From a virus (lineage: Duplodnaviria > Caudoviricetes): a stretch of 64,000 nt of DNA. Shown one piece after another: positions 2,588 to 44,996 of the stretch; position 1 is the stretch's first letter; each line of letters starts with the position of its first letter. The DNA is taken from IMG/VR virus record IMGVR_UViG_3300023048_000001, positions 110,627-174,626 of that record. One strand, written 5' to 3'. The notes under the pieces were generated by a model. The model was not told the DNA's origin. It did no database searches and was given only the letters and a program-made list of their open reading frames with translations. A program made the position numbers and the translations under genes.

Positions 2588-3442
2588 TCAAGCAACTTGT
2601 GCAAGCATTTCCACTTTCAAAGGGACGAAGTTAACCGTTTCGTCAAGCATATCGAATTCGCTGGGGTAGATGGGATTGCGACCGATGCGCATGGTGCGGA
2701 CACGACCATCCGCGTCACCGTAATAGTTGTCAACCTTGGCAACGGTAGAGGTAATGATAGCTTCCAGCTTGTCCGTATCAAACGTGATGGACAGTGTGTC
2801 ACCAAAGTCAACATGACGACTATGGCTCTTAATGGCGATCATATTCATTTCCATGAACTGGATAAGGTCACTATTGGAATGCTTGCCATAACGAGCCTGC
2901 GCACGATTCCAGCCACGGAATGACCAGATAAGTGCAGACTGAATAGCACCCATCTTCTTTTCGAATTCTTCCTGCTTACTCACGTCGAACGTCCACGTAT
3001 CGGTACGCCAGTCATGCTTGGACAGGGCACGACGAATGGTCGTATAGCAATACCTATGGAAGTCACGCACCAGTGCACGCAGGATAGGATCATCCGGGAG
3101 TGGTTCATCGCACGGCTCGACCTTCCATTCACGTTGTTCAAGAAAGTTGTAGAAATCCGTATAGATGGTTTCCAGCATGTAATCACGGGAATGGTACTGA
3201 TTCCACATACGCTTACCACAGCGAAACAGGAATGCGGCTCCAAAGGCCATCATTTCATCTTCAATGCTGTCCTTGTCATCTTCATGATGTTCGTACACAT
3301 CATGGCACACCACATGCGGAGAATGGCACGGATCGAAGTGCGGACGATTCTCTATGCGCCAGCCACCGCTAGGACCAAAGAAATGACCATTGGTGATTTC
3401 AGCATAAACAAACTTGCGGGTCTGGATCGTCATAGGATTCAT
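2588..3442 (-). CDS. hypothetical protein (possible metal-binding HDxxEH motif)
   Basis: 284 aa ORF with RBS and promoter; CHDVYEHH. Confidence 0.75.
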   Translation of the reverse strand: MNPMTIQTRKFVYAEITNGHFFGPSGGWRIENRPHFDPCHSPHVVCHDVYEHHEDDKDSIEDEMMAFGAAFLFRCGKRMWNQYHSRDYMLETIYTDFYNFLEQREWKVEPCDEPLPDDPILRALVRDFHRYCYTTIRRALSKHDWRTDTWTFDVSKQEEFEKKMGAIQSALIWSFRGWNRAQARYGKHSNSDLIQFMEMNMIAIKSHSRHVDFGDTLSITFDTDKLEAIITSTVAKVDNYYGDADGRVRTMRIGRNPIYPSEFDMLDETVNFVPLKVEMLAQVA

Positions 3443-26988: not shown

Positions 26989-27297
26989 TTATTTATTTAA
27001 CAAACGATCAATGAATTTATTTGCTAGTAGCTCATGAATCTCTTCATAAGGATGAAAGACAACGGCTACAACCCAACGCTCATTTAGATTTGTTTTCTTG
27101 TTGTAAACTACAGCCTGTATGTAACAGGAATCATGTTTACGATATATGTTATCTACTTCACATGCTTCAAGGAGGTAATTGTCACTCCAACGCTTAATAA
27201 ATTCGATTTCAAGAATATCTTCAATCTTTTCCACTGAAATATCAATGGGATCACCATCGACAAAACCGGGTATATGCTGTAGTACGCGAATGCTCAT
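26989..27297 (-). CDS. hypothetical protein
   Basis: 102 aa, RBS. Confidence 0.7.
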   Translation of the reverse strand: MSIRVLQHIPGFVDGDPIDISVEKIEDILEIEFIKRWSDNYLLEACEVDNIYRKHDSCYIQAVVYNKKTNLNERWVVAVVFHPYEEIHELLANKFIDRLLNK

Positions 27298-27322
27298 ACA
27301 CTTCCTATTGATTTAAATTTAT

Positions 27323-28170
27323 CGGGCTGAGAATAGACCCTGACACGTTGATACTTTAGTTTGGATTATGGCATCTTGCGGATGCTTTCCCACTTTTCCA
27401 CTACAACCATCCTTCCGAATGCATCATAGTATATCAACATAGCAGCCTTATTTAAGTGGTGGCATTTCCACTGTCACCGTAACCTATTCGGCATGTCCTA
27501 TTCAGTCTGCCTTGCGAGCAGCAAAGGGTTCGACCCCATCCTTGCAATTCTTTACCAACATTCATCGGCCTTGCGAGCTTCCGAATGACTCTATTGTCTT
27601 ACGACTAGAGCATTATGCTATTTTCAGTTACGACCGAATCCGTCTTTGCGTTTTTTCAAGGTTGGATTTGAACCAACGTATGATCGTTTAAGAGACGATT
27701 GCTTATCCACTAAGCTACTAGTTATCCCACTAAGGTCGAGCGGATTCATAGGTCCATACCCTTTTGGGGTACAAAATTCTATCCGACCTCATCTGCTTCT
27801 CACCCGCTAAGGTTACACTCGCAGTTCGTTTCACGACTCTTTCAAGCCATTAACAATGTATAAACGCATTCGTCCGCTAAGACTCACACCCTCATACTAC
27901 CAATTCATCATCCACTGGTTCAACGTTAGACCGGCTAGAGGTTTCTATTCCTCTCATCACTCACCGATTGGCCTGTGATGGTTTTAACCGCATTGAATTC
28001 CAATATATCTCCGAAAGCTTCCGAAGCCAGAGCGTTCCACTCTGTGATATGTTGGCTTTTATAAACGAGTCCATTTTCATGGTGGGACGCTGGTAGGCGC
28101 ATTCCCGTTTGACACCTCACGGTATCTTATCTCTCCCTCATAACCCTTTCGAATTATGAGGTACTACACA
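27323..28170 (-). ncRNA. giant structured ncRNA, GOLLD-like
   Basis: ~850 nt without a credible ORF, own promoter, many GNRA-capped stems, embedded tRNA, located in a tRNA cluster; family call from memory of GOLLD architecture. Confidence 0.65.
27654..27724 (-). tRNA. embedded tRNA-Lys(CTT)-like domain with disrupted acceptor stem
   Basis: D-arm GCTT/AAGC, ATCGT-CTCTTAA-ACGAT, GTTGG-TTCAAAT-CCAAC; no good acceptor stem or CCA. Confidence 0.7.
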
Positions 28171-28222
28171 TACGTTATTCCTTTAACGTTTCGTTCCTCT
28201 AAGTGGGAACTCATCAGTGTGT
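28166..28222 (-). ncRNA. type I hammerhead ribozyme
   Basis: ACACA-CUGAUGA-GUUCC/GGAAC-GAAA-CGUUA/UAACG-UA-UGUGU; full core, GUA cleavage triplet. Confidence 0.92.
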
Positions 28223-28237
28223 GACTTGATGTAGAAC

Positions 28238-28266
28238 ATATTAAAGTGTTTAACTATTCCTGTCAA
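28238..28266 (-). promoter_or_regulatory. sigma70-type promoter for hammerhead/GOLLD-like transcript
   Basis: TTGACA-N17-TAATAT. Confidence 0.8.
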
Positions 28267-28275
28267 CACTTAAAT

Positions 28276-28416
28276 TGGATGTTTCATTCGGGAAGGTGAT
28301 CAAACCTTCCTAGCTTATCTTCCTAACACTCCTTTGGAGGTTCTAGTCTTTGCTCATATAGAAGATTTTTGAGTCTACGGTAGCCTGTATCCGCGATATT
28401 GATCCGAATGAAACGT
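28276..28416 (-). ncRNA. tRNA-like RNA with long acceptor helix
   Basis: GTTTCATTCG/CGAATGAAAC, T-like arm GGAAGG-TTTGATCA-CCTTCC, 3' TCCA; own promoter upstream. Confidence 0.55.
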
Positions 28417-28491
28417 TTGCCTTTCGGCCAACAAATATAGTGTATATGTTAATCTCTTTATGTCAAGAGCATAAACACTAGGATTACAATT

Positions 28492-28566
28492 TGGTACTCT
28501 GTACGGGTATCGATCCCGTTTCTGCTGGGTGAAAACCAACTATCCTAGCCACTAGACGAACAGAGC
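28492..28566 (-). tRNA. tRNA-Glu(TTC)
   Basis: Cloverleaf, loop TT-TTC-AC, T-loop ATCGATA, CCA. Confidence 0.88.
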
Positions 28567-32370: not shown

Positions 32371-32444
32371 GAACTGTGATGGGATTCGAACCCACGATAC
32401 CTTCCCTTCCGGGTGAGTCGCTTAACCATCAGCGTTCACAGTTC
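32371..32444 (-). ncRNA. anticodon-less tRNA-like RNA
   Basis: GAACTGTG/CACAGTTC, D-arm CGCT/AGCG, perfect T-arm; anticodon arm reduced to CCC-GGAA-GGG. Confidence 0.65.
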
Positions 32445-35133: not shown

Positions 35134-35835
35134 TTATAACTCTTGAGTGGTTATAAAGCTACCATCGACTGCACGCTTCTTACCTTGGACATTGCGTCCT
35201 GCATAGGTTGAGGTCTGTGAATGACAGTTAGGACAAAGGAAGCAAAGGTTATCCAATCGGTTATCATTACCAACACCATTGATATGCTCAAGATGTAACA
35301 CAATTGGCTGACCATTCCATGTATCTGTGATAGTACATTGTGGACCGGAACATTTGTAAGGAATGAGGTTGAGTGACAGGATTCTGCTTTTTACTGTAGG
35401 ACGAAGTGCTGTAGAGTTTTCACAAAATATATCGTCGTATGACCTCGTACCACTGTTATTTTGTGCAGCAGCTTTTCTTGCATCAAAATGTGATACATCA
35501 GTCTTGTAATGTTTAATCAACTTTCTAACTGTTTGAATATTATTACCAGAGAACCTAATATCCATATGCTTCATAAGATCAGTCCAACATATAGACTCAT
35601 TTGCAAGCTGTTGGATAGTTTCTTTTGAATATCTCTTATGTAACGGGTTTCCCATACAATGATGGGAAATATTAATTTCATGACTTGCAATGAAATTTAT
35701 TAAGTATTTAAGTGCTTGAGCATTCTTTATGTTGATACCAAGCCTGCGTAGTATCTCTTGTTTTGATGTGCATTCTGATATAAGCAAAGTGAGTTCACTT
35801 ACTGGCTTCATTCTAATTTTATCTATTTCTGTCAT
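35134..35835 (-). CDS. free-standing HNH homing endonuclease
   Basis: LHLEHINGVGNDNRLDNLCFLCPNCHSQT; adjacent to tRNA genes. Confidence 0.9.
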   Translation of the reverse strand: MTEIDKIRMKPVSELTLLISECTSKQEILRRLGINIKNAQALKYLINFIASHEINISHHCMGNPLHKRYSKETIQQLANESICWTDLMKHMDIRFSGNNIQTVRKLIKHYKTDVSHFDARKAAAQNNSGTRSYDDIFCENSTALRPTVKSRILSLNLIPYKCSGPQCTITDTWNGQPIVLHLEHINGVGNDNRLDNLCFLCPNCHSQTSTYAGRNVQGKKRAVDGSFITTQEL

Positions 35836-36404: not shown

Positions 36405-36482
36405 TGGTGGCCAGAGGTGGATTCGACCCACCATCTACCGGTTAAAATACCGGTGATTTTGAACCGCTTAAACTATCCGGCC
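36405..36482 (-). tRNA. Lys-like tRNA with 8-nt anticodon loop
   Basis: GGCCGGA/TCTGGCC-A-CCA; ACCGG-TATTTTAA-CCGGT; T-loop GTCGAAT. Confidence 0.7.
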
Positions 36483-39221: not shown

Positions 39222-39318
39222 TGATGCTAGGAAGAAGGGATTCGAACCCTTGGTTTGATGTTATCGCACATCCGCTCTTTAAGGCGGAACACTTTAATCC
39301 TCTCGGTCACTTCCCGCA
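39222..39318 (-). ncRNA. Ser-body tRNA-like RNA, 8-nt loop, bulged acceptor
   Basis: TCCGC-CTTAAAGA-GCGGA, long variable arm, AAGGG-TTCGAAT-CCCTT. Confidence 0.6.
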
Positions 39319-41863: not shown

Positions 41864-43000
41864 TTATTCGGTTTCTGTTAGTTCGGGATCGTCGCCAATT
41901 CCGAACTCCTTATAATGCTTGATCATCCATGTCTTGTAGTCGTTCTCCTTCCCAAGGTAAAGGTTCATCGCAAGGCTGAAATACAGACGGTCTAGCTCTT
42001 TCTGTCCAGCAATCGCATAATCCTTTCTCTCTAGATCACTATTTGAATTATAGAACCCAACAACATACTTGTCAATATTGCGATAAATTGCCTTGACCTT
42101 GAGTTCCATTTCGTCAATGAGTTTGAGCATATATTCATCATACGAGAAGTTAGCACGGGCATCATCGTGGCCTTCGTTCACTACCACAATGAAGCGCTTC
42201 TTAGGTGAGTTAATATCATCCTTAAGATTGTGTAGTGAACAATACCAGTCAGTCTTGTGCTTCGTTAGAACACCCTCAACACCAATGATGTAGCCCTCTA
42301 CTCCCGTCTTTGCTGGAATTGAATCAACAAATGCTGGAACATCATCAACCTTATAGCTCTTTACCAAATAATCAAGAACAAGTGGATCAAATGAGACCAT
42401 TGTCATTACGACTTCATTATATGCCAGTACTTTACCATCATCACGATCACGAACATGGAGAACAGTCAGCTTATCTTCCTGATAAGGAAGAACAATACGG
42501 TGTACCGGCGAAGTCCATTCCAAAGAAACAGAGAATTTAGCCTGTTCCATGTATTCTAAATATTTTAGCAATCTATCATTTTCGCCATTGAACAAAAATT
42601 CCATGGCAGCATTTGCCTGCTCTGAAGCTAGCGATGTTTTGCTCTTCAGATATGTGTTTCCATGGATCATGTAAGTGGTCATAATGCTACCATCCATCTT
42701 ATCCATGACAATATCTGCCTTGGAGAAGTCGATGTCCATAACCAAAGGATTTTCCTTAAAATTAAAGAATTTTCGGGGTGGCAGGGAAGCCAGACGCTTC
42801 ATACGTCCATCTTCCATTTCAAACATGATACCACGAGCCTCAAGAGCCGAAGGCTTCAGGAAGTCGCTATAGGAAGCTAGACGATAGTTGAACACACGGA
42901 AGGTAACACCTTCCATCTGATGTTCTACGATATAAAATGGTGAGTCAGGAGCATGAATAAGCTCCATCAACTCATCATATAGAGTTGATTCATAATGCAT
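41864..43000 (-). CDS. rnlA: RNA ligase 1 (T4 Rnl1 family)
   Basis: FNYRLASYSDF, EARGIMFE, KFFN, motif I KMDGS, LKSK, EGY, KTDWY. Confidence 0.92.
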   Translation of the reverse strand: MHYESTLYDELMELIHAPDSPFYIVEHQMEGVTFRVFNYRLASYSDFLKPSALEARGIMFEMEDGRMKRLASLPPRKFFNFKENPLVMDIDFSKADIVMDKMDGSIMTTYMIHGNTYLKSKTSLASEQANAAMEFLFNGENDRLLKYLEYMEQAKFSVSLEWTSPVHRIVLPYQEDKLTVLHVRDRDDGKVLAYNEVVMTMVSFDPLVLDYLVKSYKVDDVPAFVDSIPAKTGVEGYIIGVEGVLTKHKTDWYCSLHNLKDDINSPKKRFIVVVNEGHDDARANFSYDEYMLKLIDEMELKVKAIYRNIDKYVVGFYNSNSDLERKDYAIAGQKELDRLYFSLAMNLYLGKENDYKTWMIKHYKEFGIGDDPELTETE

Positions 43001-44877: not shown

Positions 44878-44996
44878 TGGCAGATGTGGATGGATTCGAA
44901 CCACCGACAGCTATGTCATATTGTCCATTCCTATACGGGAGGACTCAACATTATGCACCTCTCCACGAGGCCACTCTTCCACTGAGTTACACATCT
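44878..44996 (-). ncRNA. expanded tRNA-like RNA (119 nt)
   Basis: AGATGTG/CACATCT-G-CCA, canonical D and T arms, 5-nt anticodon loop, ~48-nt variable hairpin. Confidence 0.75.

Follow-up and report, generated by a model that had tools for sequence, protein, structure and literature searches.

GOLLD RNAs are among the largest non-coding RNAs of bacteria and phages, and the structure of the cage they form has been solved. Two members, the env-38 GOLLD and the Streptococcus agalactiae GOLLD, have been determined by cryo-electron microscopy as a 14-mer and a 12-mer, respectively. Kretsch et al. (2025) found that the linker of the RNA, which is the least conserved part of the family, faces the interior of the 14-mer cage, where it is not resolved, and that transfer RNAs (tRNAs) are sometimes present there. 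A 2026 review (PMC12990946) cites a Mycolicibacterium GOLLD with a tRNA-Phe in this linker (J13/15) and proposes "inhibited storage"; its references on mycobacterial GOLLDs with an embedded tRNA include Morgado et al. (2020). Behra et al. (2019; PMC6582537) reported a pseudo-tRNA in the GOLLD of M. aubagnense, which was not detectable as a separate RNA. The occurrence of tRNAs and pseudo-tRNAs in the GOLLD linker is therefore already published (Kretsch 2025, Behra 2019), and the kind of object is known. Here we analyzed a GOLLD locus with a tRNA-shaped module in its linker, located at 27324-28170 on the minus strand of a 64,000-nucleotide (nt) stretch of viral DNA. This stretch, hereafter the window, forms the final 64 kb of an IMG/VR virus contig of 174.6 kb (IMGVR_UViG_3300023048_000001), which is about half complete according to CheckV. 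The useful new details of this locus are a predicted hammerhead leader, a conserved module design with an open acceptor end, and an anticodon loop that is hypervariable in cultured relatives.

A first-pass annotation, made from the letters alone, had described the stretch as a GOLLD-like giant RNA of about 850 nt. We found that this gene-free stretch encodes a true GOLLD. The Rfam model RF02032 matched 27324-27791 (minus strand) with 201.8 bits (E 1.8e-55; the gathering score is 150), and the alignment runs end to end, from model position 1 to 416 of 416. According to the Rfam alignment annotation, the long-range pseudoknot of the 3′ domain (27635-27626 with 27484-27475) keeps 9 of its 10 pairs. 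Apart from the nested tRNA, neither ROOL (RF03087) nor any other Rfam family gave a match at E≤1 on 27200-28500. The cmsearch proposed in the annotation is positive for GOLLD and implies no new class. The annotated length was also borne out, as the upper end at 28170 is exactly the cleavage site of a predicted hammerhead ribozyme. With the Rfam model end as its other boundary, the mature RNA (27324-28170, minus strand) would be 847 nt in size with a predicted 5′-OH at U28170. Taken together, this stretch can be firmly assigned to a full-length GOLLD RNA, encoded by an uncultured jumbo phage, and the locus adds no new RNA class.

In the order of transcription, the RNA starts with a 5′ domain of 379 nt (27792-28170), which was recognized by its homology to the 5′ domains of five Rfam-confirmed GOLLDs. 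The Rfam alignment then places the P13 hairpin (27730-27791, model positions 1-62), the last helix before the linker, and, after the linker, the conserved 3′ domain that includes the long-range pseudoknot (27324-27652), all on the minus strand. The nearest cultured relatives by DNA are the Xanthomonas phages X1, BUDD, and XacN1 and the Sinorhizobium phage Phosso, all of them large phages, whose GOLLDs carry no annotation. When the 5′ domain was aligned with those of these four phages and of the closest relative, the locus L084 (alignment A1), the mean column identity was 62%, and 22 of the 38 pairs predicted by RNAalifold showed compensatory change. The GCAA/GTAA-capped stems noticed earlier are visible in the Rfam alignment as GCAA-, GUAA-, and GAAA-capped hairpins, for example two CUCGCAAGG hairpins. 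As for the repeated CTTAGYGG motif, the whole window contains six matches (2.3 expected), four of which cluster on the minus strand within 27707-27881. The repetition is real, but one copy is nothing other than the D arm belonging to the tRNA-shaped module. Two others occupy homologous positions in the relatives and are predicted to form small UAGY-loop hairpins with covarying stems.

Compared with the env-38 and S. agalactiae GOLLDs, the locus shares the full match to the family model, the pseudoknot, a variable 5′ domain of about 380 nt, the size of about 850 nt, the phage origin, and the setting in a tRNA island. In the window this island is dense, with 15 Rfam tRNA matches and 14 genes called by ARAGORN, nearly all on the same strand, and tRNA-Glu genes flank the GOLLD locus. 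What sets the locus apart from the two solved GOLLDs is the tRNA-like module in J13/15 and the predicted hammerhead; its cage is proposed by homology. The mycobacterial GOLLDs likewise have a tRNA-shaped insert in the same linker, but they are chromosomal or prophage-borne, come from Actinobacteria, and no hammerhead has been reported for them.

The module lies at 27653-27724 (minus strand), between the P13 hairpin and the pseudoknot, and matches the full tRNA model RF00005 with 47.5 bits. The earlier description of intact D, anticodon, and T arms with a Lys CTT anticodon proved correct. All 14 core pairs are formed (D arm 4/4, anticodon arm 5/5, T arm 5/5), the T loop reads UUCAAAU, and the anticodon loop (27694-27688) reads CUCUUAA with the anticodon CUU (Lys) at 27692-27690. 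The elbow nucleotides U8, A14, G18G19, C48, U54U55C56, and A58 are all present, as is U33. The defects are confined to the acceptor end. Only four of the seven acceptor pairs (1:72, 4:69, 6:67, and 7:66) can form, with mismatches at 2:71 (A.A), 3:70 (A.A), and 5:68 (U.U), and the 3′ flank is AAAAACGC instead of CCA. Therefore, the former statement that the module has "no acceptor helix or CCA" stands for CCA but not for the helix, which is weak and broken rather than absent. In the minimum-energy fold the acceptor helix does not appear, and ARAGORN made no call on the module.

By comparison, 13 of the 14 tRNA genes called by ARAGORN in the window have six or seven of seven acceptor pairs, the exception being an irregular call at 39226-39316 with 5/7, and in 12 of the 14 the CCA end is encoded in the genome. 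The module was not recently copied from another tRNA of the window or of the compared loci. We infer that the module is not excised from the RNA, given its broken acceptor helix, its lack of CCA, and the linker position reported in the literature. These features, together with the absence of an ARAGORN call, agree with the first-pass view of an unchargeable tRNA domain, since the module looks neither chargeable nor excisable. We consider it a real tRNA-like insert that is very probably not a working tRNA, and one that almost certainly cannot become a working tRNA.

To see how widespread such modules are, we surveyed 103 other IMG/VR loci picked by a GOLLD 3′-end motif and 107 motif-selected loci from bacterial genomes, a selection that may have caught some non-GOLLD loci, using a tRNA nhmmer profile. 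Neither ARAGORN nor the profile found anything tRNA-like in the linker zone of the 103 IMG/VR loci. ARAGORN is, however, blind to linker modules, as it found none at default or 85% thresholds in any GOLLD locus of the viral scan, the window included. Among the 107 bacterial loci, a tRNA-like linker was found only in M. alsense and in one Saccharofermentans metagenome-assembled genome. The linker tRNA of M. alsense differs from the module in the window by its nearly intact acceptor stem (6/7 pairs) and its His-like anticodon. Exact-pattern scans of IMG/VR for further Lys modules returned only L084, the locus L121, and chance matches in coding sequence, and one metagenome scan returned the same contig as L084. 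Within the wider clade of the window, modules are frequent.

L084 has lost the T arm and the 3′ acceptor strand. It keeps the 5′ acceptor strand, the D arm, whose loop is shortened, and the anticodon arm, in which the CUCUUAA loop is identical. The segment of the D and anticodon arms is 80% identical between L084 and the window, versus 68% in the conserved 3′ domain. The module of Phosso is complete, with a CUUCUAA loop (anticodon UCU), perfect core arms, and 4/7 acceptor pairs; again no CCA is present and ARAGORN made no call. A search with the Phosso GOLLD led to the phiCbK-group Caulobacter phages, the Mesorhizobium phage Cp1R7A-A1, and the phage DSS3_MAL1. The annotated "tRNA-Lys", "tRNA-Gly", "tRNA-Leu", and "tRNA-Arg" genes of these phages lie inside Rfam-confirmed GOLLDs, at the same linker position. 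Like the module in the window, they have an intact core, a broken 2:71 and/or 3:70 pair, and no CCA; they differ in having no hammerhead leader, Alphaproteobacteria as hosts, and a slightly longer acceptor stub (4-5/7 pairs). The embedded modules are at 1591-1662 of L259 and 1591-1663 of L260 (phiCbK group), 1579-1654 of L261 (DSS3_MAL1), and 1532-1603 of L262 (Cp1R7A-A1). GenBank lists them as ordinary tRNA genes and leaves the surrounding GOLLD unannotated, and the tRNA gene counts of these phages probably include one non-functional entry each.

We then compared seven phage GOLLD modules, that of the window and six homologous ones, including those of phiCbK and Phosso (alignment A2). The helices of the core are paired in 96% (D), 100% (anticodon), and 100% (T) of cases, and seven pairs have changed on both sides. 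In the acceptor stem, 3:70 is unpaired in 7/7 modules and 2:71 in 5/7, pairs 4 to 7 are mostly kept, and none of the seven is followed by CCA. All seven modules sit at the same point of the linker, just before a conserved A-rich motif, (A)CGCAAAG / AGCAAAAG, and the 5′ acceptor strand UUGCGA is common to Phosso, Magneto, and Cp1R7A-A1. Common descent of the modules is supported by the identical insertion point, the shared UUGCGA strand, and the universal 3:70 mismatch. The anticodon loops vary more, with UCU in Phosso and DSS3_MAL1 and CAG in Cp1R7A-A1, and position 33 is G or A in 3/7 modules (such G33 or A33 loops occur in phiCbK, BL57, and DSS3_MAL1). Decoding tRNAs have U at this position. 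As judged from the sequence comparison, the modules are best described as a shared design, with an intact tRNA body and an opened acceptor end, and not as randomly decaying or captured tRNA genes.

The variation of the anticodon loop was also followed in a 1.5-kb alignment of six phiCbK-like phages. Only six columns vary in the roughly 450 nt that begin shortly before the module and extend to the GOLLD 3′ end, and five of them are positions 33-37 of the anticodon loop. Three alleles of these positions were observed, UCUUA in Magneto, Karma, and RBC57, GUCCU in phiCbK and Ccr29, and AUCCU in BL57, with a loop length of 7 nt in all six phages. The 5′ domain of the same six RNAs has more than 40 variable columns. 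The module in the window carries the UCUUA (Lys-type) allele, and its whole CUCUUAA loop is common to Magneto, Karma, and RBC57. An invariant body with a changing loop is what we would expect if something reads the loop.

Upstream of the GOLLD, a candidate type I hammerhead ribozyme was recognized at 28166-28222 (minus strand) from its core motifs and pairing. Stem I, which is open, pairs ACACA (28222-28218) with UGUGU (28170-28166) over 5 pairs. It is followed by the core CUGAUGA (28217-28211), stem II (28210-28193, 5 pairs, closed by G10.1-C11.1), the core GAAA (28192-28189), and stem III (28188-28173, 6 pairs including A15.1-U16.1). The cleavage site is UA, with U16.1 at 28172 and A as H17 at 28171, and the cut is predicted between A28171 and U28170. 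A scanner that required the core motifs and all three helices found 28222-28166 as its only match on both strands of the 64-kb window. Antisense strands and shuffled versions of 119 GOLLD loci yielded no match, and 2.24 Mb of loci yielded four. Hammerheads with the same core and different stem sequences are located 426-460 nt upstream of the 3′-domain model in L084, X1, BUDD, and XacN1, for which mature lengths of 821, 813, 812, and 796 nt are predicted. The candidate resembles known type I hammerheads (RF00163, RF03152) in its CUGANGA...GAAA...UH core, its three stems, the open stem I, and G10.1-C11.1. It differs from them by scores far below the Rfam cut-offs and by its position in a GOLLD 5′ leader, which is not described in the literature searched; no paper linking hammerheads to GOLLD was found there. 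No hammerhead leader was found ahead of the GOLLDs of Phosso, the phiCbK group (Magneto), DSS3_MAL1, or Cp1R7A-A1.

A sigma-70-like promoter (TTGACA, 17-nt spacer, TAATAT; 10/12 consensus matches) was predicted by consensus scan at 28238-28266 (minus strand), with a transcription start about 8-10 nt ahead of the hammerhead. XacN1 has the same TTGACA-17-TAATAT arrangement ahead of its hammerhead, and X1 has a promoter-like sequence as read by eye. The hammerhead probably cuts the GOLLD RNA free at its 5′ end. It would thereby set the 5′ end of GOLLD in a clade of phages that counts the cultured Xanthomonas phages X1, BUDD, and XacN1 among its members, and it predicts a 5′-OH and an exact mature length. 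In L084, a second complete hammerhead was observed directly after the GOLLD 3′ end (3336-3390, plus strand), which would cut 51 nt downstream (H17 at 3384). An open reading frame (ORF) starts about 120 nt after it, and the GOLLD of L084 is thus bracketed by two ribozymes and separated from the downstream ORF. The sequence upstream of the 3′ domain of L121 is unlike a 5′ domain and, by eye, more like coding sequence.

Considering the anatomy and the comparative pattern together, we think it likely that the locus is a unit of promoter, hammerhead, and GOLLD that carries a selected and permanently tethered tRNA mimic. The GOLLD RNA, which is encoded on the minus strand, would probably be transcribed from a sigma-70-like promoter of its own, and the type I hammerhead directly upstream would cut at A28171/U28170, leaving the 847-nt RNA with a 5′-OH. 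By homology with the solved GOLLDs, 12-14 copies of this RNA should form an RNA-only cage, into whose interior the J13/15 linker points. The 72-nt mimic, with its broken acceptor top and without CCA, would then be present inside the cage once per subunit. Both of its strands run on into the rest of the GOLLD, which would make it a permanently tethered look-alike and not a tRNA gene. The mimic appears to be kept by selection, and our best guess is that some factor which reads the anticodon loop makes contact with it. This factor may be a host tRNA-targeting defence nuclease that the phage baits or evades, which we suggest tentatively; that it is another tRNA binder, for example the ribosome, a modification enzyme, or the ligase of the phage itself, is a more doubtful possibility.

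Several observations weigh against this reading. The comparative evidence for selection on the mimic assumes that the modules share a common ancestor. The seven modules might instead be independent captures of different tRNAs and not one lineage, and the compensatory changes would then be no evidence of selection in place. As few as two mutational events could account for the concentrated loop changes in the phiCbK group. Few modules occur in the two motif-selected samples, each of about 100 GOLLD loci, and therefore the module is not needed for GOLLD function in general. In addition, the GOLLDs of X1, BUDD, and XacN1 have no tRNA-shaped module. Regarding non-excision, a weak acceptor stem is not a strict bar to slow processing by RNase P. 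Finally, the Rfam hammerhead models score far below their cut-offs (RF03152, 17.6 bits with a cut-off of 56.3; RF00008, 16.9 with 48.5), and because of these weak scores the hammerhead call rests on motif, pairing, and conservation.

Some linkers without a tRNA-shaped module contain a smaller structure. Those of X1 (L001 3363-3343) and XacN1 (L002 ~3235-3215) have a short hairpin with a 5-bp stem and a 6-7-nt loop ending in GGUUAA, and the linker of L121 has a similar short hairpin with the loop AUAUUA. Such hairpins may have been left over from an anticodon arm, or they may represent the same element in minimal form. The near-identical GOLLD of BUDD gave no tRNA match in its linker, which was not read separately.

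The alternative that the module is a decaying relic, a tRNA gene of the array that was captured in an unconstrained linker and is drifting without function, would fit the position of GOLLD genes in tRNA arrays, the poor conservation of the linker, and the rarity of modules in both samples. The relatives also offer decay-like stages, with L084 lacking the T arm and X1 and XacN1 having a short hairpin only, and the mycobacterial example has been termed a pseudo-tRNA (PMC6582537). The distribution of damage in the module does not look like drift, however. The 14 core pairs and the elbow are intact and all three breaks fall in the acceptor stem, for which the random chance is 35/1330, or about 0.03, among 21 pairs, and Phosso has the same pattern. 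The core helices are 96-100% paired in the seven modules and show compensatory changes, the six phiCbK-like phages have the same module body despite more than 40 variable columns in their GOLLD 5′ domains, and the D and anticodon arms of the window and L084 are more alike than their 3′ domains (80% versus 68%). Because of the covariation and the invariant module body, a pure relic is disfavoured, and we regard it as improbable. A third view takes the module as a stored pro-tRNA, inactive within the cage until RNase P/Z or opening of the cage would free it as a late-infection source of tRNA-Lys(CUU). Lysyl-tRNA synthetase uses U35 of the anticodon and A73 as identity elements, and the discriminator base of the module is indeed A73. 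Some GOLLD tRNAs have an almost intact acceptor, as in M. alsense (6/7), and storage has been proposed for embedded tRNAs (PMC12990946; Kretsch et al.). In the window, however, the acceptor keeps only 4/7 pairs with 2:71 and 3:70 broken, and CCA is missing although 12 of the 14 ARAGORN-called tRNA genes of the phage encode it; a CCA-adding enzyme was not found in the contig, which covers about half of the genome. Homologous modules with G33 or A33 are unfit for a decoding tRNA, L084 has no T arm, and no separate RNA was seen for the mycobacterial pseudo-tRNA (PMC6582537). A stored pro-tRNA is thus disfavoured by the defects of the acceptor, the lack of CCA, and the alleles without U33, and we consider it very unlikely.

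A more specific proposal is that the module acts as a multivalent bait for tRNA-Lys nucleases such as PrrC and AriB, sparing the real tRNA-Lys of the cell or the phage. T4 Rnl1 repairs tRNA-Lys cut by PrrC, and a gene for a T4 Rnl1-type RNA ligase is present at 41864-43000 (minus strand; PHROG 562 at E 8.6e-91; PF09511, 54.1 bits; PF20819 (T4_Rnl1_C), 46.9 bits). A whole-genome search with PF09511 gave a false negative for this ligase, which was found by a direct scan of the ORF. The gene, which includes the tRNA-specific C-terminal domain, lies in the same tRNA island and on the same strand as the GOLLD, 14 kb away. Moreover, CUCUUAA has the form expected of a tRNA-Lys(CUU) loop and is displayed on an intact anticodon arm and tRNA body; it is kept in Magneto, Karma, and RBC57, and in L084 despite the lost T arm. 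The hypervariable loop of the phiCbK group would fit an arms race. On the other side, the described target of PrrC and AriB is tRNA-Lys(UUU), not CUU, and homologous modules with Arg-like, Leu-like, or non-canonical G33/A33 loops show no tie of the module class to Lys. The position inside the cage may limit the access of a nuclease complex, a cut in the bait would also break the GOLLD apart, and the close relatives X1, XacN1, and BUDD have no tRNA-shaped module. The Pnkp partner of Rnl1 was also not found in the contig, about half of the genome; the one AAA_33 match is an unrelated AAA ATPase. RtcB and PNK3P were not found in the contig either, and given its incompleteness these absences, including that of the CCA-adding enzyme, mean little. 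AriB of the PARIS system cuts tRNA-Lys, and phages answer with variant tRNAs (PMC11455837; PMC10264068); phage tRNAs also escape anticodon nucleases by mutations in the loop (PMC10264068). The window resembles these phage answers in its Rnl1-type ligase, its many tRNA genes in the island, and the variation of the anticodon loop, but they are free, functional tRNAs, whereas the tRNA shape in the window is fixed in a large RNA and looks unable to decode. Altogether, we consider a Lys-specific bait unlikely.

The tethered mimic can nevertheless be placed in a broader context, as the hypervariable loop and the Rnl1-type ligase are compatible with a link to tRNA-targeting defence. One bold extension is that the GOLLD cages of proteobacterial phages carry 12-14 tethered, non-excisable mimics whose anticodon loops would be the arms-race interface with host tRNA-targeting nucleases, as a multivalent bait, sensor, or sponge. 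We regard this extension as a long shot. If true, it would be the first function for a GOLLD RNA, and the set of nucleases present in the host would be mirrored in the loop allele (CUU here; UCU, CAG, or non-canonical elsewhere). Given the predicted 5′ end, the conserved design, and the fast-changing loop, genetic tests of what the linker does become feasible in Caulobacter, Sinorhizobium, and Xanthomonas systems.

We also noted several features around the locus. A 102-amino-acid ORF at 26989-27297 (minus strand) with a good ribosome-binding site starts only 27 nt past the GOLLD 3′ end, and a tRNA-Glu(CUC) lies 5 nt beyond it. Between the GOLLD and this ORF there is neither a terminator nor a ribozyme, and the 3′ end of the RNA is thus not defined in this phage. 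A scan of ten ORFs around the locus identified an endolysin and an HNH endonuclease; the others gave no informative family. The HNH endonuclease gene (35134-35835, minus strand; PHROG 10822 at E 2e-42) is located between tRNA genes. HNH endonuclease genes among tRNA genes have been reported for mycobacterial tRNA/GOLLD clusters.

Some tRNA calls in the island are unusual. The tRNA at 36405-36482 (minus strand; Rfam tRNA, 49.3 bits) has a full acceptor stem and CCA, an apparently 8-nt anticodon loop (UAUUUUAA), and an irregular anticodon according to ARAGORN; a Lys-type tRNA whose loop has been altered and a frameshift-type tRNA are both conceivable. For the irregular tRNA-like call at 39226-39316 (minus strand), ARAGORN gave a 4-nt anticodon (taaa). 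Two Rfam tRNA matches on the minus strand were missed by ARAGORN, a weak one at 32371-32443 (32.5 bits) and one of 116 nt at 44881-44996 (38.9 bits), possibly with an insert or intron. No transfer-messenger RNA (tmRNA) was found in the 64-kb window. Permuted tmRNA genes of the two-piece type are present within a few kb of the GOLLD in XacN1 (L002 4275-4694) and L084 (10134-10572), and also near the GOLLDs of the phiCbK-group phages (L259/L260 ~630-1070) and DSS3_MAL1 (L261 2041-2457).

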